64,000 bases of DNA from Coraliomargarita sp. (GCA_965216325.1 OZ244160.1:2784001-2848000), one strand, 5' to 3'. Shown: positions 56,883-64,000, counted from the first letter of the stretch. A program made the numbers and translations. Notes: a model not told the origin generated them from the sequence alone.

Positions 56883-57007
56883 ACCACCCCGTCTCGCTCT
56901 GTGATCCACCCCTCCTCGTCAAGGAGGGGAGTTTTAAGCTTCTCTTCAGATAAGAAAGCTACTCCCCGGCTAAGGGGAGATGTCTTAGCTAGATAAGACG
57001 GAGAGGT
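56883..57007. repeat. Degenerate inverted pair of REP-like palindromes
   Basis: ACCACCCCGTCT...CCCCTCCTCGTCAAGGAGGGGAG and its inverted relative CTCCCCGGCTAAGGGGAG...AGACGGAGAGGT. Confidence 0.5.
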
Positions 57008-57119
57008 ATATCAGTTCGCTCATTCATAATAATGTGACCCAGCGATTTCACCCTAAATTAACGTAATTTGACGTGCATTAACGGTTAATAATCATTTTCT
57101 TAGGGACTGACAGGTCACT

Positions 57120-57512
57120 ATGAGTACAGAACCCATCGATCCGGGCATGCATAAGAATAAAGGCGCGAAGCGTGTCTTTAGGGCCTTCTTTTATTCTATG
57201 GATGGCATTCTCTCTGCCTTTAAGCATGAGGCCGCCTTCCGTCAGGAGCTGGTGCTGGCGACCTTAATGATTCCTGTATCGTTTTTGCTCAACGTGCCGC
57301 TGATGCATCACCTCGTCTTGGTGTGCTCTGTCTTGTTGGTGCTGATTGTTGAGCTACTGAATTCAGCGATCGAAGCAGTGGTGGACGATATTTCTCTGAG
57401 CAACCGTCCTTTAGCAAAGCGCGCCAAGGACCTGGGGAGTGCGGCGGTATTTATCAGCTTGATGAACTGTTTGATCTGCTGGGTCTCCGTGATCGTCGTT
57501 AACTGGGGCTGA
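57120..57512 (+). CDS. dgkA: Diacylglycerol kinase
   Basis: HEAAFRQE, ELLNSAIEAVVD, AKDLGSAAV. Confidence 0.95.
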   Translation: MSTEPIDPGMHKNKGAKRVFRAFFYSMDGILSAFKHEAAFRQELVLATLMIPVSFLLNVPLMHHLVLVCSVLLVLIVELLNSAIEAVVDDISLSNRPLAKRAKDLGSAAVFISLMNCLICWVSVIVVNWG

Positions 57513-57553
57513 CAGGAGCTATCACTTGGCTTCGTCAATGAGCCCACCAATTA

Positions 57554-57610
57554 CATGAACGTGGAGATCTGGCGACGGCGTTAGCCGTTGCTCAATGAAT
57601 CTGGTTAGCT
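57554..57610 (-). repeat. attC site 1 (terminal, unoccupied, partly degenerate)
   Basis: Minus strand: R'' AGCTAAC 10 nt after the cassette stop, hairpin GGCGACGGC/GCCGTTGCT, R' GTTCATG; R'' is complementary to the cassette-start GTTAGCT at 57877-57871. Confidence 0.8.
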
Positions 57611-57620
57611 CTGGGTTTGC

Positions 57621-57857
57621 CTAGCGGCGTCCTTCGTTGAGTGCTTTCTTCAATTCCTCTTCAGACCTGAATTCTTCTTTTTCTTTTGGTCCGAAGGCAA
57701 TGTAGAGGAGTAGTCCGAGTGCGTTGAGAGTGCATAAGACTACAGTCCAACAAATTTTATCTGTTGGCTCGATTTCTTCACTTTTGAGATGGGCAATCAG
57801 TGCCCAAAGCCAAGCTAGCTGAATCAACGCTATGATAATAATCCAAGTGGTGTTCAT
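57621..57857 (-). CDS. Cassette gene: small membrane protein with PLDc_N-like domain
   Basis: W.WALI...DKICW...LNALGLLLY..G pattern; no promoter, ATG 13 nt after GTTAGCT. Confidence 0.75.
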   Translation of the reverse strand: MNTTWIIIIALIQLAWLWALIAHLKSEEIEPTDKICWTVVLCTLNALGLLLYIAFGPKEKEEFRSEEELKKALNEGRR

Positions 57858-57870
57858 TTCTTATTCTTTT

Positions 57871-57919
<49 letters not shown>

Positions 57920-58029
57920 TTGAACAAAGCCGCTGCGCGGCGGCTGTTGGTTAAGTGCTTGGGCGTCTTGGTGGGTGGTTTCTAAAGTCAAAAGTTCCGG
58001 GCTAGGCTGAGTTGCCCCAACCTGCCCGG

Positions 58030-58996
58030 ATGAAAAAAAAATACCAAATCATCAAAGACTCAGTGTTCGCAAACGTATCAACAGTTCTATGCGCATGTCC
58101 ATAGCAAAGCTCACTCGCCTCGTAGTCGTAAGGCTTATCTGGATTGGGTCAATCGCTTGGGCGAGCACTACCAACCGAAGGGCCCGGGGTTGCGCCGTCT
58201 ATCGGAACGTCAGGTGTTGGACTATCTGATCTACCTGCGCGACGACCAAAAGCTGGCCGCGTCAACGGTGAATCAGGCGCTGGTGCCGATTCGGACGCTT
58301 TACCGTGATGTGCTGGCCCGGGAGTGGAAGCTGTGGTCGGAGTTCACGCTGCAGCGGCGCGAGCCTTTGCCGAGCGTGCTCACGCGCGACGAGGTGCGGC
58401 GTGTGCTGGCCTGTGTGCATGAGGGTCGCTTTCGGGCGGTGCTCTCGCTGATCTATCACTGTGGTTTGCGTTTACAGGAGGCCTTGCAGCTCAAGCCGAC
58501 GGATATCGACTCTGGACGCGGCGTCGTTCGCGTGCGCCATGGCAAGGGCAACAAGGCGCGTGAGGTGCCGATTTGCCCGGCAATGGTCAAGCGGTTGCGG
58601 GCATTTTATAAGTGCCACCGCAATCCGGACTGGCTGTTCCCTGGCGTGGGGCGCGGCTGGAAGCAGTCAGGCATCTCTCAGGCGCAGGCGATGCACCGCA
58701 GCGCCAAGCCGATGAGCAGCTCGGCGCTGGAGATGGCGATGCGGATCATCCGCGCCAATAGTGGCATCAACAAGCACTTCACGGTGCATACCTTGCGGCA
58801 TAGTTTTGCCACACATTTGCTGGAGGACGGGGTGTCGATTCGTCAGGTCAGTCGCTATCTCGGCCACTCGGAACTGAAGAGCACGCTGGTGTATCTGCAT
58901 GTAACCGAGCTAAGTGAAGAAGGTGGCCGCCAGAGCCAGAGCGCACTGTTTGACAGTGTGATCGCTCCGGCCTTGTCGAAGCGCAGCAAGCGTTGA
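58030..58996 (+). CDS. Tyrosine recombinase (phage-integrase family), frameshifted in an A9 run right after ATG 58030
   Basis: GLR, GKG, HTLRH, LGH and Y catalytic residues; the frame of ORF 58157 stays open back to 58034 and encodes a SAM-like N-domain (HSPRSRKAYLDWVNRLGEHY). Confidence 0.85.
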
Positions 58997-60096
58997 GGCT
59001 GGCCGATCTACTGCGGCGGCATTGGCCGGAGTATGTCAGCGCGCGCGGCGGGGCACACAAGATCCCTGCCGCACACTGGCGAGCAGTCGAAGCCGTCTTG
59101 AGTTGTCGCACGTCTAGATTGGGCGGGCATGTGCACCTGTGTGCCAGTTGCGAGCGTGAGCACTATGTGTATCACAGCTGCAACCATCGAGCCTGTCCGA
59201 GTTGTGGAGGGCGCACGCAGCAGCTGTGGTCAGCACGCCAACAGGCTCGCCGCTTACCGGTGCCATACTTCATGCTGACCTTCACGGTGCCCGAGCAACT
59301 GCGCGGGTTCTTCCTGCGCTACGACCGGGTCGCCTATCAGTTGTTGTTCGCGGCCAGCTCTGGAGCGATCAAAGAACTGTTTGCCAATCCGAAGCACTTT
59401 GGTGGCGAGCCGGGCTTTGTGGCGGTGCTGCATACGTGGACACGGCAAGTGCAGTATCACCCGCATGTGCACGTGCTCGTGCCTGCCGCTGCACTCAGCC
59501 AGAGCGGATGCGAAGTAATCCGCGCCAAGCACGAGAACTACCTGTTGCCGTATGCCGCGCTGGCGCGCAGCTATCGCGACCAGTTCCTGCGTGCGTTGCG
59601 CGAGAAACATCCGGGCCGGTCTGCTGAACTGGATCCACAACTCGCGCGTATGGATTGGAACGTGAACGTTCAACCGGTTGGTCGTGGCAAACGTGCACTA
59701 CGCTACCTCGCGGCGTATGTGGGCAAGAGCGCCTTCAGTGAAGAACGTCTGGCTGGTTACGATGCGCAAGGGCGTGTGCGGCTATGGTGGACCGATTCGG
59801 CTACGGGCCAGCGCAGGCTGATGGCTCTTGAGCCCGCCGAGCTGATACGCCGCTGGCTGCTGCATGTTCTGCCCAAGGGGCTGACACGCGTGCGGCACTA
59901 TGGCACCCTCTCAGCTGCCGCGCGGGATAAATACCGCAGGCTGCGCTTCCTGCTCGGCGGCCGTGCACCTGCGATCCAACTACCTGAAGAACAGCCTCTG
60001 CGTTGTCCTTGTTGCGAGGGGCAGCTGCACCGCGTCGGCAAGCTCCGTCCAGTCCGTGGCCCACCGCTGAGCACCGCCTTACTTTACCGCAAATGA
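58993..60096 (+). CDS. IS91-family rolling-circle (Y2/HUH) transposase
   Basis: Zn-binding CASC and SCNHRACPSC, FMLTFTVP, LHTW...YHPHVH HUH motif, YLAAY (YxxxY), RVRHYG, CPCC; TTG start overlaps the recombinase stop. Confidence 0.92.
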   Translation: MRLADLLRRHWPEYVSARGGAHKIPAAHWRAVEAVLSCRTSRLGGHVHLCASCEREHYVYHSCNHRACPSCGGRTQQLWSARQQARRLPVPYFMLTFTVPEQLRGFFLRYDRVAYQLLFAASSGAIKELFANPKHFGGEPGFVAVLHTWTRQVQYHPHVHVLVPAAALSQSGCEVIRAKHENYLLPYAALARSYRDQFLRALREKHPGRSAELDPQLARMDWNVNVQPVGRGKRALRYLAAYVGKSAFSEERLAGYDAQGRVRLWWTDSATGQRRLMALEPAELIRRWLLHVLPKGLTRVRHYGTLSAAARDKYRRLRFLLGGRAPAIQLPEEQPLRCPCCEGQLHRVGKLRPVRGPPLSTALLYRK

Positions 60097-60289
60097 TCAA
60101 CCGTGTTCAACAGACAGGCCGCAGCCCCGAATCCCATCAGATTTGGGCCGTGCTTGCTTGTGCCCGTTTTTGGGATGTATCCGTAGCGTGGATACGAAAA
60201 CGCCATTATTTAGCTGCGCCCACACCAACTCTCTGTGCTGATGTGGTTTTACGGCATGATGCCGGAAAACCACATGCCTGCCGCAGCTT

Positions 60290-60310
60290 GAGATTTACAA
60301 ATCTCCTAGC
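60290..60310 (+). other. oriIS-like motif (candidate HUH nick site)
   Basis: GAGATTT-AC-AAATCTC hairpin plus CTAG about 200 nt downstream of the transposase; resembles the AAATTCCTAT-type oriIS end. Confidence 0.5.
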
Positions 60311-60395
60311 CGCGTCGATCCGAACGCCCCTCCAGCAGTGCCGCCAAAAGCGTTTCGCATATACTAAGCCGCGCCGTTAATCCAAGGGCGGGCTT

Positions 60396-60451
60396 GTTCA
60401 ACAATCAGTTATCAACGCGGCTGCGCGCGATTGATAACTTCAGGGTTAGGC
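60396..60451 (+). repeat. attC-like hairpin at the right end of the element (not of the host attC family)
   Basis: GTTCAAC (RYYYAAC)-AATCA-GTTATCAA-CGCG..CGCG-A-TTGATAAC-TTCAGG-GTTAGGC (GTTRRRY). Confidence 0.8.
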
Positions 60452-60733
60452 CTTTTTGTAATTCTTTAAGTCTCTATAGAAGTTTTCATGGCTCCCATAC
60501 GTAAGTAGACTTATTTCACTTTCATCGAAGCTATAGGAAAGTAGTGTCAGCTGTTTATTGATTTTAAACTTATGGACGAATATTCCTGCAAGATCGCCAG
60601 CTTTTTCCTGACCAATGCTAGGATTTGAGAGGATGTCTAAAACTGCATCGTCTAATTCTTTCTTTTCCTGCTTTTTGAGCTTCTTCATTTTCCTGCTGAA
60701 CGCAGGGGATACGTAGACCTTCTGTTTAGCCAA
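60446..60733 (-). CDS. RelE/ParE family toxin (cassette)
   Basis: SPAFSRKMKKL...NPSIGQEKAGDLAGIFVHKF...GSHENFY; the stop codon lies within R'' GCCTAAC. Confidence 0.88.
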   Translation of the reverse strand: MAKQKVYVSPAFSRKMKKLKKQEKKELDDAVLDILSNPSIGQEKAGDLAGIFVHKFKINKQLTLLSYSFDESEISLLTYGSHENFYRDLKNYKKA

Positions 60734-60944
60734 AAGTATATTCCTCCTTCTCAGCTTCTTTCATTTCCTCCATTGCTAATAGTGTTTCTTTAATGAAGCT
60801 GAAGGGTAGGTCTGGATTCTCTTCGGCAGCCTTTCCGATCGTTGCCCAATATTCCAACTGTGAAGTCATTGATCGATGCTCCACTTTGGATCTGGTTTTG
60901 GCTTCTTTTGCGAGATGGTCGGATATGCGAATAACAGTGCTCAT
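60726..60944 (-). CDS. ParD-like (RHH) antitoxin (cassette)
   Basis: IRISD.L..EA......HRSMTSQLEYWATIGK.AEENPDLPFSFIKE; overlaps the toxin start. Confidence 0.85.
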   Translation of the reverse strand: MSTVIRISDHLAKEAKTRSKVEHRSMTSQLEYWATIGKAAEENPDLPFSFIKETLLAMEEMKEAEKEEYTFG

Positions 60945-60953
60945 GAATGACGC

Positions 60954-60981
60954 CTTGTAGTAAAATGTAGCACATTGTCAA
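60954..60981 (-). promoter_or_regulatory. Internal promoter/operator of the TA cassette
   Basis: TTGACA-16 nt-TACAAG on the minus strand; palindrome AATGTGCTACATT in the spacer. Confidence 0.65.
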
Positions 60982-60991
60982 CTTTTTGTGT

Positions 60992-61059
60992 GCCTAACGT
61001 AGAGATGTCTCGATTCAGTGAAGCGCGGAGCGCGTAACTGAATTGAGACTATCGACTGG
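60992..61059 (-). repeat. attC site 3, interrupted by an intron at CTGG|TT (remainder TTCTAC at 61712-61717)
   Basis: GCCTAAC-GTAGA-GATGTCTCGATTCAGT...ACTGAATTGAGAC-T-ATC-GACTGG; the rejoined R'' GTAGAAC matches the cassette start GTTCTAC at 62285-62279. Confidence 0.88.
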
Positions 61060-61711
61060 GTATGCCCGGCATGTTGATAAACTAATATGGTTAAAGTCCA
61101 TTGTGAGAGCCCTGAATAACAACTCAATCACTAGAGAAGCACAAGTGCGGAATCGTGAGGTTTCGTGCGGAAGCAGTGTGGATCAAACCGACGAGCCGAT
61201 GTATAAGAACGTCATAGGAGGCACAGAGGACGGGCGAGCGGGCCCGGGATCGCGAAGCCCATCAGGTCAGATCCGATGTGTAAATGGCGCGGTTGTGTCG
61301 GGGCAGTGTATCAACTTATCCGGGGAGGCCTCGGAGGTTCGCGTTGTGGCTTCAATGTGCCAATCAAGCATCGCAGTTGAAGCAGGGATGCTTCGATGAT
61401 GAACTTCCGAGGAGTCAGCAAAGGGCATAGTAGCCGCGGAGACGAGCTTGCCAGAGGCAGGACGGACTCACGAAGCGGTGAAGGCCTGAAGTCGATCATC
61501 ATCGGGACTCATTCAGTAGACACGTCCATAAACGCCGACCGTAGCGCGAGGACCTCTGATCTCTGTCTGATACAGCTCGAAGATACGTCTACTTTTGTAG
61601 GCGCGACAACCGCCTTAAAACAGACTGCGTAGCACTGCGATCAGTCTGGCTGCGGACCCGCATGGCAGGTGGTGTGGGAGCGGGGGGAGTTAATGCCCCT
61701 CGCTACCCGAT
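61060..61711 (+). mobile_element. ORF-less group IIC (attC-type) intron, 652 nt
   Basis: 5' GTATGCCCGGCATG, core GAGTCAGC...GCATAGTAG and GAAGGCC, DV with CGC triad, DVI ending CTACCCGAT; no RT. Confidence 0.88.
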
Positions 61712-61720
61712 TTCTACCAT

Positions 61721-61978
61721 TCAGTTGTAGTGGAAACGCATCTGGACGAAAGTGATTCCGTGATCGAATTGCTTGTACACAAGGCGATGCTCTTCAGTGA
61801 TTCTTCGGGACCAGTATCCACTTAAATTATGTTTGAGAGCTTCAGGCTTTCCAATGCCTTCATATGGAGAACGCGTGATGTCCTGAATCAGTAAGTGGAT
61901 TCTCTTTAGAGTCCTTTTATCTGTTTTCTGCCAGTACTGATAATCTTCCCATGCTTGTGGAGTGAAACTGATATTCAT
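61721..61978 (-). CDS. yoeB: Txe/YoeB family toxin (cassette)
   Basis: AWEDYQYWQ..DK, GIGKPEALKHNLSGYWSRRITEEHRLVY, RFHY. Confidence 0.95.
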   Translation of the reverse strand: MNISFTPQAWEDYQYWQKTDKRTLKRIHLLIQDITRSPYEGIGKPEALKHNLSGYWSRRITEEHRLVYKQFDHGITFVQMRFHYN

Positions 61979-62232
61979 TCTGAGAGATCAATTTCTTTTA
62001 CGGTAATATTCCCTGTTTCAGCCGCTTCGATGGATGCGATCAGTCTCTTCGCATTTGCAGGACTTCTTAGGAGGTGTGCAGTCTCTTCGAGGGCTTCATA
62101 GTCTTCCAAAGAGAGCATTACGACAGCCTGCTCCCTTTTTCTTGTTATGATTATTGGGTCTCGATCTAAGCAGACCTGATCCATTGTGGATGCTAGATTC
62201 TCTCTTGCGGCGGTGTAAGTAATAGCGTTCAT
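61975..62232 (-). CDS. yefM: Phd/YefM family antitoxin (cassette)
   Basis: MNAITYTAARENLA..MDQV..D..PIIITR...VMLSLEDY..LEET.HLLRSPANAKRL; true start ATG 62232. Confidence 0.93.
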   Translation of the reverse strand: MNAITYTAARENLASTMDQVCLDRDPIIITRKREQAVVMLSLEDYEALEETAHLLRSPANAKRLIASIEAAETGNITVKEIDLSE

Positions 62233-62234
62233 TG

Positions 62235-62270
62235 TGGACATCATACTGTCCATGTTCGCGCGGGGGTCAA
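62235..62270 (-). promoter_or_regulatory. yefM-yoeB promoter with palindromic operator
   Basis: TTGACC...TATGAT on the minus strand; TGGACA-N6-TGTCCA palindrome over the -10; ATG 7 nt after the -10 (possibly leaderless). Confidence 0.65.
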
Positions 62271-62278
62271 TTTTTTTC

Positions 62279-62338
62279 GTAGAACGTGGAGATGTGGCGA
62301 CGGCTGAGCGCAGCTCAGTCGTTGCCACTATCGACTGG
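62279..62338 (-). repeat. attC site 4, interrupted by the RT-encoding intron after CTGG
   Basis: GTAGAAC-GTGGA-GATGTGGCGACGGCTGAGC-GCA-GCTCAGTCGTTGCCAC-T-ATC-GACTGG. Confidence 0.9.
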
Positions 62339-64000
62339 GTATGCCCGGCATGTTGATAAACTAATATGGTTAAAGTCCATTGTGAGAGCCCTGAATAACA
62401 ACTCAATCACTAGAGAAGCACAAGTGCGGAATCGTGAGGTTTCGTGCGGAAGCAGTGTGGATCAAACCGACGAGCCGATGTATAAGAACGTCATAGGAGG
62501 CACAGAGGACGGGCGAGCGGGCCCAGGATCGCGAAGCCCATCAGGTCAGATCCGATGTGTAAATGGCGCGGTTGTGTCGGGGCAGTGTATCAACTTATCC
62601 GGGGAGGCCTCTATCTGTGGCGAGCGTGAGCTTCAATGTGCTCACTCAAGCGCTTGCAGCGGTGACAGCAATGCCGTCGCTGTCACGGATGGAGGAGTCA
62701 GCAAAGGGCATAGTAGCCGCGGCGACGAGCCTGCCAGTGGCAGGATGGACTCACGAAGCGGTGAAGGCCCGCACTACGCATGGCAACCGGACTTGCCTCT
62801 GGAGCCCACCCATAAACGCCGGATGGCGCGCGGGCACGGGAATCCGGAGCAATACAGCCAGTTGCAAGCCGAGCTATTGGAGGCGATCTTCAGTAGCACC
62901 AACCTCGAAGCGGCCTATGGTCGTGTCAAAGCCAATGGCGGAGCCGCTGGTGTAGACGGCATTAGCTGGGCCGAGTTTACGGAATGGTTCATCCCGCGCC
63001 GTGAAGGTCTGCTGCGCCGCTTGCATCTGGGTAACTACCGCCCGAGTGCGGTGCGTCGTTGCTACATCCCAAAATCGAACGGCAAGAAACGCCCTTTGGG
63101 CGTGCCGAACCTGTTCGATCGGATCGTGCAACAAGCGATCCACCAAGTGCTCAGCCCGATGCTGGAGCCTTCGTTCAGCGAGCATAGTTTCGGGTTCCGC
63201 CCCAAGCGCGGCGGCCAACAGGCCGTCCGCGCCCTGCACGGGCACATCCGCAGCGGCTATCGCTGGGCAATCGACATCGACCTGAAGTCGTTCTTCGACA
63301 CAGTCCCGCACGCGCGTGCGTTGGAAGCACTACGCAATCGCCTCGGTGGGGATGGCCCCGTCGTGCGGTTGATTAAGCGCTACTTGGAAGCGGGCTATGT
63401 CGAACTGGACCAGTTCCACGAAACGGTCGAAGGTATGCCACAGGGCGGGCCCTTGAGTCCCTTGCTGTCGAATCTGGTGCTGGATGCACTGGATAAGGAA
63501 CTGGAGGCTCGGGGGCACCACTTCGTGCGCTACGCCGACGACTTTGTCGTGGTCGTTCAAAGCGAACGCGCTGCCAAGCGCGTCTTCTCCAGCATCTGCG
63601 ACTTCGTCGAGGGCGAGCTGGGGCTGACGGTCAACCGTGAGAAAAGCGCGGTGCGCCCGGTGCGTGAACTGAGCTACTTAGGCTTCAGTTTCCGTCAGGC
63701 CAAGATCGTGGTCAGTGCGCAGGCACTGGCCGAGTTCAAGTATCGTCTCAAGTGTTTCAGCTGTCGAAGCTGGAGCGTGTCGATGGACTACCGCCTGTAT
63801 CAGCTTCGTCAATACGCTCGAGGTTGGATGGGCTATTACGGCCTGTCCGAAGTTTACAGCGTGTGGCTGTCGATAGACAAGTGGCTTCGCAGGCGAGTTC
63901 GCATGTGCTACTGGCGCATGTGGAAACGCCCGCGACGTCGCTATCTCAATCTGGTGAAAATTGGCTCCAATAGTAAGTTTGCTGGTGGCTTTGCTAAAAG
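62339..64000 (+). mobile_element. Group IIC (attC-type) intron encoding a reverse transcriptase, truncated by the window end
   Basis: Same 5' end and domain I core as 61060, followed by an RT ORF. Confidence 0.92.
62823..64000 (+). CDS. ltrA: Group II intron reverse transcriptase/maturase (partial; absent from the ORF track because it has no stop in the window)
   Basis: Manual translation: VKANGGAAGVDG, YIPKSNGKKRPLGVP, DRIVQQA, SFGFRP, DIDLKSFFD, GMPQGGPLSPLLSN, RYADDF (63531), YLGF, RGWMGYY. Confidence 0.95.
   Translation, partial: MARGHGNPEQYSQLQAELLEAIFSSTNLEAAYGRVKANGGAAGVDGISWAEFTEWFIPRREGLLRRLHLGNYRPSAVRRCYIPKSNGKKRPLGVPNLFDRIVQQAIHQVLSPMLEPSFSEHSFGFRPKRGGQQAVRALHGHIRSGYRWAIDIDLKSFFDTVPHARALEALRNRLGGDGPVVRLIKRYLEAGYVELDQFHETVEGMPQGGPLSPLLSNLVLDALDKELEARGHHFVRYADDFVVVVQSERAAKRVFSSICDFVEGELGLTVNREKSAVRPVRELSYLGFSFRQAKIVVSAQALAEFKYRLKCFSCRSWSVSMDYRLYQLRQYARGWMGYYGLSEVYSVWLSIDKWLRRRVRMCYWRMWKRPRRRYLNLVKIGSNSKFAGGFAK

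Follow-up and report, generated by a model that had tools for sequence, protein, structure and literature searches.

Group II introns and an IS91-family element with an IntI-like recombinase at the foot of attC hairpins in a Coraliomargarita integron

The stretch analysed here, from here on the window, comprises 64,000 nucleotides of Coraliomargarita sp. (bases 2784001-2848000 of a 3.06-Mb single-contig genome) and ends within an array of integron gene cassettes whose recombination sites, the attC hairpins, are interrupted by group II introns and by a DNA element of the IS91 family that pairs a Y2 (HUH) transposase with a recombinase resembling the integron integrase IntI. These two unrelated classes, retroelements on one side and a DNA element on the other, use the same foot of the folded attC, as an earlier note on this sequence had proposed, and they do so both in the rest of this genome and in other genomes. 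Positions are those of the window unless stated otherwise, and slashes mark junctions.

The integron array and its attC sites

The array, preceded by ftsA, ftsZ and dgkA, begins at 57554 and continues beyond the end of the window, and the region 57554-64000 is the distal end of a sedentary chromosomal integron (Table 1). The true integron integrase gene, intI, is found on the + strand at 70084-71013, about 6 kb past the window and to the right of the array (TIGR02249 356-358 bits; cut-off 265), and a candidate attI, GCAGAA/C at ~69301-69307, matches the first cassette end. Cassettes read leftwards on the - strand down to the terminal attC, which adjoins dgkA; the open reading frames (ORFs) of cassettes with Pfam matches, encoding the PLDc_N protein, ParD/ParE and YefM/YoeB, all lie on that strand, and the first six bases of each cassette complement the R box of its own attC (TTAGGC with GCCTAA, TTCTAC with GTAGAA, TTAGCT with AGCTAA). 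When two host attC sites were folded as the + strand, a single base was bulged in the 3' arm, which by convention denotes bottom-strand polarity. Since the location and strand of intI, the strand of the cassette ORFs, the complementarity of cassette ends to R boxes and the arm of the bulge all agree, the + strand of the window is read as the attC bottom strand, and the insertions lie in it, antisense to the cassettes, as had been claimed from the sequence before.

Table 1. Positions of attC sites, mobile elements and cassettes in the array, with the evidence for each
Feature	Position	Strand	Evidence
Terminal attC, empty, CATGAAC...ATCTGG/TTAGCT	57554..57604	+ (bottom strand)	R1 41.4 bits, E 7e-8
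attC of the ParD/ParE cassette, broken after ...GGCTGG by the DNA element	57871..57919	+ (bottom strand)	R1 52.4 bits; fold; empty-site contig X6
attC broken after ...CGACTGG by the ORF-less intron	60992..61059	+ (bottom strand)	R1 46.2 bits; fold z -4.2
attC broken after ...CGACTGG by the full-length intron	62279..62338	+ (bottom strand)	R1 72.7 bits; fold z -5.3
IS91-family element with IntI-like recombinase, 2526 bp	57920..60445	+	Three genome copies, 99.9% identity, different flanks; X6 joint skipping 2526 bases
Tyrosine recombinase gene	58157..58996	+	Pfam Phage_integrase, SAM_4; NCBIfam integron integrase 177.6 bits
IS91-family Y2 (HUH) transposase gene, start overlapping the recombinase stop	58993..60096	+	NF033538 339 bits (cut-off 125); PF04986, PF14319 (Y2_Tnp, Zn_Tnp_IS91)
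Element right end: GGCTTGTTCAAC (inverted repeat of the left end), hairpin, ...CAGGG	60390..60445	+	Fold z -3.4, bulge in 3' arm
ORF-less group II intron, T1 type, GTATG...CCCGAT, exactly between G and TTCTAC	61060..61710	+	Rfam RF02001 100 bits, RF01998 49 bits
Full-length T1 group II intron with ORF for reverse transcriptase (RT)-maturase	62339..64000, ends at 64229, then TTCGAC	+	Rfam; RVT_1, GIIM
Last cassette ORF, 78 amino acids, PLDc_N domain	57621..57857	-	Pfam PF13396, E 2e-8
ParE/ParD toxin-antitoxin cassette, TTAGGC...GCCTAA	60446..60991	-	Pfam PF15781, PF11903
YoeB/YefM toxin-antitoxin cassette, TTCTAC...GTAGAA	61711..62278	-	Pfam PF06769, PF02604

For the identification of attC sites a covariance model (R1) was built from 15 sites of this genome, which align as xxxxAAC-GTRGAG-stem-loop-stem-CGACTGG and show compensatory changes in four of the six predicted pairs of the inner stem; it superseded a loose regular expression combined with a folding scan, which had given 894 mostly false matches. 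Searched unfiltered over 57000-64000, the model returned only the four sites of Table 1, all on the + strand with E <= 7e-8, and nothing comparable on the - strand of the same interval. Three of these four are broken directly after ...CTGG. Genome-wide, 28 attC-type sites were found at E <= 1 (the 15 used for model building and 13 new ones), a possibly incomplete count, as 150 of 1128 candidates were scored. Tabulation of their occupancy, which the earlier note had advised, gave ten occupied sites (three by T1 introns, five by introns of a second type, T2, and two by the DNA element) and 18 empty ones that run on into normal cassette sequence. Of the six sites detected in the array of the window, four are occupied, a seventh having been lost along with the 5' part of an intron. 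The view that only the terminal attC is empty holds within the window, and fails just outside it, where a second empty attC lies at 64921-64971 with a non-canonical G/AT.

Such non-canonical, self-complementary R boxes, with AT for TT, were seen as G/ATCTGC with GCAGAT/C and as G/ATGTGT with ACACAT/C (window-equivalent 64921-64971, 65557-65563; genome 815514-815790), and cassettes of this integron therefore do not require the GTT triplet. Three intI genes of the genome stand above the TIGR02249 cut-off (genome 2766502-2767434, 2854084-2855013, 811175-812110), all of them in long open frames of 441-484 amino acids, which suggests an N-terminal extension of ~130 amino acids.

Introns and the DNA element behind the hairpins

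Both T1 introns of the window begin directly at the end of an attC, with the junctions ...CGACTGG(61059)/GTATGCC...CCCGAT(61710)/TTCTAC and ...CGACTGG(62338)/GTATGCC.... Rfam models score ~100 bits (RF02001) and 41-49 bits (RF01998) over the two, and the ORF-less intron is 91% identical to the full copy over its first 431 nt and 88% over its last 103 nt. Because the boundaries GTATG...CCCGAT cannot be shifted, T1 insertion falls exactly at G/TT. In the T1 intron-encoded protein, RVT_1 and GIIM are the only Pfam domains within the 403 amino acids scanned, the last ~40 amino acids and the T2 protein lying outside the scan. T2 introns (1.9 kb, five copies with 99.5-100% identity) are flanked by CTGGT/.../T or CTGGG/.../T, that is, one base beyond the T1 bond. 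All ten related copies with an intact 5' end, five of each lineage and one of them nested in another intron, lie behind the ...C(T)GG of attC-type hairpins, after the hairpin on the attC bottom strand and antisense to the cassettes.

To judge from their sequence and position, T1 and T2 appear to be attC-targeting class C introns, a behaviour that is already known: according to the available text of PMC3001079, introns of the group IIC-attC kind enter attC on its bottom strand, in the direction opposed to cassette transcription and usually after palindromes. T1 (at G/TT) and T2 (one base further) would enter this strand in its folded form by reverse splicing, immediately 3' of the hairpin. With group IIC-attC introns such as S.ma.I2 of Serratia marcescens class 1 integrons they share the ribozyme with its RT-maturase and the antisense site just 3' of the folded bottom strand, within the GTT of R''. 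They differ in that the nearest plasmid-borne relative of the T1 protein, encoded by an intron in the aadA1 attC of a class 1 integron and likewise antisense to the cassettes at ...GAATTGT/.../TAGAC (GT/TAGAC), is only 46.8% identical, and also in the presence of two co-resident lineages one base apart, of ORF-less derivatives and of one nested intron. In this nested case (L009, genome 550312-554174) a T2 intron follows the first G of a T1-type intron that itself occupies an attC; occupation of a site therefore does not protect it from a second insertion.

At window-equivalent 68452-68924 (genome 2852452-2852924), a T1 3' fragment ends correctly at G/TTCTGC of the first cassette, the 5' part of the intron, the attC and part of the neighbouring ORF being deleted (L012). 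Weak similarity (66-75%) to T1/T2 was noticed at six further loci, together with short domain-5-like matches at ~10 places (genome 1096993, 1143230, 1322381, 1371984, 2236691, 2599737 and others), and the sequence suggests a third multi-copy group II intron family in the genome.

The DNA element occupies the attC of the ParD/ParE cassette with the junctions ...GCGGCTGG(57919)/TTGAAC...CAGGG(60445)/TTAGGC, so that this junction and those of the two introns read exactly as reported in the earlier note. Its left end consists of TTGAAC followed by a subterminal palindrome, and its right end, taken together with the left TTGAAC, makes an attC-like site; the right-end hairpin is kept with compensatory changes in a relative (L015) and also family-wide. 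In sequence terms the element has the complete anatomy of a cassette, TTGAAC...genes...GTTCAAC-hairpin-G. Its ORFs match only Phage_integrase/SAM_4 and Y2_Tnp/Zn_Tnp_IS91, which sets it apart from elements with an IS110-family transposase, and the HVH and YxxxY motifs of the transposase were read by eye from the DNA. NCBIfam models rank the recombinase as integron integrase (177.6 bits) before XerA (142), XerC (136) and XerD (128); this best score lies below the TIGR02249 cut-off of 265, with profile positions 181-215 unmatched, and the protein is thus not an IntI proper. Alignment with the genome's own IntI shows the catalytic R, K, H, R, H and Y columns to be invariant and the inserted segments of IntI to be absent, in agreement with the remark, in the part of 10.1101/542381 available, that recombinases borne by IS91 elements are the closest IntI homologues, fall in the IntI subgroup and lack the IntI-specific insertion.

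Three copies of the element are present in the genome (A, that of the window, B and C), which differ by one A8/A9 run indel and one substitution. In copy A the ATG at 58030 is out of frame owing to a run of nine A (58032-58040), and copies B and C have eight and an intact ORF of 321 amino acids. Contigs of sequencing runs also have A8 at 58030-58040, and the A9 of copy A may have arisen by a genuine slip or as an error of assembly.

The copies share exactly TTGAAC...CAGGG, and the sequences outside it differ. The left flank of each copy is an attC-type hairpin ending in CTGG, two of the three being matched by R1 and one being a degenerate half-site, and the right flanks are TTAGGC, ATGTGT and TTCGGT. 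The host attC thus differs from copy to copy, and the mobile unit retains its own hairpin. Copy B lies at a genuine cassette boundary, of the non-canonical G/AT type, because the R box of the next attC (ACACAT/C) is complementary to its unusual right flank, ATGTGT. An empty-site allele, the occurrence of which the earlier note had made a check on its reading, is given by a contig of an algae metagenome (X6) that joins 57917 to 60444 with 2526 bases skipped and nothing between, GGTT fitting either side, and that carries the ParD/ParE cassette without differences. In a marine metagenome (X5) the aligned pieces of the element show no base changes save for an indel in the A-run, and are followed by another right flank that again starts with TT. 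A further joint, 57591 to 61017 in run X2 (side 22), most likely derives from a paralogous attC and was given no weight. Neither the flanks of the copies nor the empty-site joint show a target duplication. The element has been recently mobile, without duplicating its target, and its insertions fall at the conserved G/TT of integron core sites.

The notion that all three insertions use the same bond is exact for the T1 introns only, T2 lying one base further (CTGGN/). For the DNA element, GGTT is common to site and element at both junctions and leaves the breakpoint ambiguous by up to 4 nt, which copy B narrows to either side of the G, so that by sequence the bond appears resolved to 2-4 nt only. 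Counting the shared G as flank, the tetranucleotides abutting the end downstream of the transposase gene (tnpA) are GTTA, GATG and GTTC in copies A, B and C. Cassette ORFs and their stop codons are left intact, as had been proposed: the parE stop TAA (60446-60451) is the TAA within the R'' box GCCTAA/C, the element following directly after the stop with zero spare bases. On its left the element rebuilds an attC from the host hairpin and G-TTGAAC, and on its right it places GTTCAAC-hairpin-G before TTRRRY (TTAGGC here), bearing out at the sequence level the suggested replacement of the R'' it detaches. Competition between the classes for one site, also suggested by the earlier note, is not evident, considering that (i) 18 of the 28 attC sites are empty, vacant canonical CTGG/TT targets thus being plentiful, (ii) a T2 intron is nested in a T1-type one, and (iii) the left junction of the element re-creates a perfect intron target.

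Replication direction was considered as a cause of the orientation of the element and rejected, copy B following the attC strand and not the replichore defined by skew. Cumulative GC skew goes up over 0-1.15 Mb, down over 1.15-1.8 Mb and up again to 3.06 Mb, pointing to very unequal replichores or to a large rearrangement.

Relatives of the element and its proposed route into integron sites

The transposase has relatives at 37 loci, which belong to Verrucomicrobia (46-68% identity), Chloroflexi and Gammaproteobacteria, and the family is present in 24 of the 401 sampled genomes of the phylum. Recombinase-like matches of 93-124 bits occur in at least 35 loci, and ten of the 12 loci with ORFs listed have a recombinase gene whose end meets or overlaps the start of the transposase gene. 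The ends are conserved across phyla, with TTGAAC-nAAGC and a short palindrome on the left and GC(n)GTTCAAC, a hairpin of 40-90 nt and a final G on the right. The base preceding TTGAAC, read by eye, is G in 38 of 41 left junctions, a count that leaves out L022, where the motif lies inside a gene, and two chance motif matches. Right flanks, where they could be fixed, are mostly TTAGGC, TTAGCC, TTAGGT or TTAGAC, in keeping with the GTTRRRY core. Matches to the host-type attC model stop precisely at the left end of the element in L015, L055 and, twice, L077 (E 0.05-0.13), and L015 and L058 have further attC sites of like orientation close by. Six junctions, two of them in this genome and four in relatives, are abutted by the strand-specific model, and in every one the sense strand of the element is on the bottom-type strand of the attC.

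Two Chloroflexi loci, L047 and L049, have a true intI on the strand opposite to the element, with ~150-250 bp between the element and the intI start, and in L047 the right flank G/TTATCC opens a normal cassette with its own R box GGATAAC. By this arrangement the element of L047 and L049 apparently holds the first-cassette position at attI in canonical orientation, the position and orientation of a cassette, which are not those seen in this genome, L015, L055 and L077, where it is inverted and at R''. Tandem copies with the junction hairpin-G/TTGAAC occur in L028 and L058/L078, and the tandem junction of L028 folds into an 8-bp R box and an inner stem. Left flanks of five Chloroflexi loci (L027, L038, L046, L047, L049) share the motif C-N-GTATA-(4-8 nt)-TAG or -TTG, with the insertion at its end; it stands beside intI in L047 and L049 and has no intI within the available DNA in L027, L038 and L046, and may be a lineage-specific attI. 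The remaining copies of the introns and of the element in this genome lie in attC-type hairpins, a regularity beyond chance that upholds the earlier note on this further check, and the junctions genome-wide and across genomes favour its idea that the element classes have converged on one site. The full cassette anatomy, the IntI-like recombinase and the attI position in other genomes go beyond what it had seen. That the element is what it is described to be here, and that it targets attC and attI, is taken, apart from any mechanism, as highly probable.

The interpretation preferred here, to which a probability of about 0.55 is given, is that attC hairpins serve as a landing pad shared by class C introns and the IS91-family element, the latter being brought there, with some leaning, by its transposase. 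The Y2 transposase would make a single-stranded circle by rolling-circle replication, and this circle would be joined to the folded target at hairpin-G/TT(R), the attC core GTTRRRY containing a GTTN target of the IS91 type presented on single-stranded DNA. The recombinase would either help, in end recognition, target capture or resolution, or do the joining itself. With TTGAAC-palindrome at the left end and GTTCAAC-hairpin-G at the right, joining of the two in a circle or a tandem would form an attC-like site. The layout of the ends matches that of IS91/IS801, for which the portion of PMC13181058 at hand gives a subterminal palindrome upstream, palindromes downstream and flanking GTTN (GTTC for IS801).

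As for the cutting enzyme, there is no formal difference between cutting the sense strand on the 3' side of the hairpins and cutting the antisense strand on their 5' side (AA/C, the position used by IntI). The element's own Y2 transposase is the tentative choice, at somewhat short of an even chance; its recombinase is a possible candidate of nearly similar standing, and the host IntI is an improbable one. We lean slightly to rolling-circle transposition of the IS91 type with the recombinase as helper, the odds being close.

Several observations weigh against the shared landing pad or against the transposase as its agent. The hairpin of the element itself gave no match to the host attC model in the unfiltered search of 57000-64000. 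The short side of the X6 joint is 20 letters, and since such joints can stem from repeats it is good rather than strong evidence. The flank GATG of copy B breaks the IS91 rule of a T at position 2, and the six-base, TTAGGC-like right flank is more specific than the tetranucleotide of IS91. The geometry of a canonical cassette at attI in L047 and L049 suits a tyrosine recombinase or the host IntI better than an HUH enzyme. Targeting of hairpins is not universal either, with about ten of 27 left flanks folding no better than shuffles (z > -1.7), and a copy on the plasmid of a cultured Herpetosiphon has A at -1 and is flanked by two large genes. Finally, the circle, the nick and the strand of this interpretation are predictions from contig sequence.

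The best-standing alternative, even so rather doubtful, is a mirror image of integron recombination performed by the element's own IntI-like recombinase, with the Y2 transposase only supplying the single-stranded circle. The recombinase would fold the antisense strand of the element and cleave its 5' foot GTTCAA/C as IntI does, exchanging it either with attI, in canonical orientation, or with the top strand of a host attC, which has the same bulge polarity, to give an inverted insertion at R''. The antisense hairpin of the element indeed bulges in the 5' arm, and the top strand of host attC is expected to do likewise from the two bottom-strand folds. This alternative would account for the cassette anatomy, for the tandem copies (L028, L058/L078), for the canonically oriented insertions beside intI in L047 and L049, which fall precisely on the point of attI where IntI crosses over, and for right flanks TTAGGC, TTAGCC and TTAGGT in many independent events, which are the GTTRRRY core; in addition, the recombinase is closest to IntI and has its catalytic residues intact, and the placement of IS91-borne recombinases in the IntI subgroup, as stated in the available part of 10.1101/542381, points the same way. 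On the contrary, IS91 proper needs no recombinase, the ends fit the ori/ter layout of IS91 as well, copies exist at sites with neither hairpin nor core site, and the binding of the hairpin by the recombinase is a supposition only; the recombinase start of copy A is moreover frameshifted, although supply in trans would be possible.

Very unlikely is a reading of the element as a passenger cassette of the usual kind, a pair of IS91-type genes that became linked to an attC and is shuffled by the host integron integrase. Its structure TTRRRY...RYYYAAC-hairpin-G and its first-cassette position at attI in L047 and L049 would be those of such a cassette, but in this genome, L015, L055 and L077 it is inverted relative to the cassettes and its junction is at R'' rather than at the IntI crossover in R'. 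Besides, the mobile unit keeps its own hairpin, to which the host attC model has no match, while the host attC varies between copies, a degenerate half-site harbours one copy, and relatives occur outside integrons.

Least probable of all is a coincidence of composition, insertion at any GTTN or CTKG, as in IS91, with attC sites merely rich in these, since, although IS91 targets are given as 5'-CTTG/GTTC and rarely CTGG in the accessible Table 2 of PMC13181058 and some family members do lie at non-hairpin sites, very many GTTN and CTGG (uncounted) are to be expected in a 3-Mb genome and yet 3/3 copies stand behind attC-type hairpins, 28 of which were found, four junctions of other genomes repeat the pattern, and the sense strand is on the bottom-type strand in each of the model-abutted junctions.

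Known systems and meaning for integrons

Part of this picture is known, namely the behaviour of the introns, the invasion of attC by the IS1111 group and the existence of IS91-like elements with recombinases. The IS1111-attC group of the IS110 family comprises DNA insertion sequences that, like introns, invade attC, as set out in the available text of PMC9229058. Its transposase is unrelated to the Y2 HUH enzyme and the tyrosine recombinase of the element described here. To our knowledge, no attC-like end has been described for IS1111 elements.

With IS91, IS801 and IS1294 the element shares a Y2 transposase well above the family cut-off, the absence of target duplication, the arrangement of end palindromes and, apparently, a flanking target of the GTTN type, and with IS91 also a coupled upstream ORF, which there is orf121. 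It differs from them in that this upstream ORF encodes an IntI-like recombinase, and in its terminal inverted repeats of 12-13 bp, its attC-like right hairpin and its integron core-site targets. The same pair of genes is found in IS91-like elements with a tyrosine recombinase such as ISShvi3, which was seen in a Shewanella integron beside an attC (PMC9229058, available text); in the accessible portions of that paper and of 10.1101/542381, no attC-like terminus, defined G/TT junction or systematic attC/attI targeting is described for them. Compared with integron gene cassettes, the element has the TTRRRY start, the R''-hairpin-G end and the position at attI or between attC sites, and differs in carrying its own mobility genes, in being inverted at R'' in this phylum and in a hairpin that is not of the host attC family. 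In integration of the CTX-phage type, Xer recombinases act on folded single-stranded DNA. The alternative that gives the joining to the recombinase likewise invokes a Xer/IntI-like enzyme on a single-strand hairpin, with the differences that no phage is involved and that the chemistry is here only supposed.

In the open-access literature no report was found of an IS91-family insertion at attC G/TT, of an attC-like IS91 terminus, of a defined junction at attC R'' and attI, or of the cross-phylum pattern. The nearest statements met there are the remark on ISShvi3 and that on the IntI subgroup, in the parts of PMC9229058 and 10.1101/542381 available, and apparent mentions of IS91 in PMC11023631 and PMC3826837 refer to IS911.

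For the array itself, the two classes may have different consequences, and the earlier expectation that an intron freezes a cassette and the element keeps both flanks recombinogenic is plausible from the sequence. An intron moves TTRRRY 0.65-1.9 kb away from the R box, which should disable that attC and fuse the neighbouring cassettes. The element leaves two attC-like sites, such that the host attC together with the element genes should in principle be excisable as a cassette; it could be carried, or carry its neighbours, in this form. In annotation, such elements will pass as odd 'cassettes' or break attC calls.

In an integron, the attC sites are the parts that move. Two intron types and an HUH transposon, three independent lineages in all, insert no more than two bases apart, and the folded attC therefore acts as a general single-strand landing pad, not only as a substrate of IntI, if the interpretation preferred here is right. 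The element has an attC-like terminus, a transposase of the rolling-circle type, producing single strands, and the closest relative of IntI known so far; it is met at attI and attC in two phyla, and all this could bear on the origin of integron integrases and of attC sites. We consider it unlikely, though worth stating, that IS91-recombinase elements are self-mobilising integron cassettes, in which the junction of the rolling-circle product folds into an attC-like hairpin, and that they represent a living relative of the IntI/attC ancestor, or an offshoot; if this were true, the origin of integron recombination sites would become directly testable.

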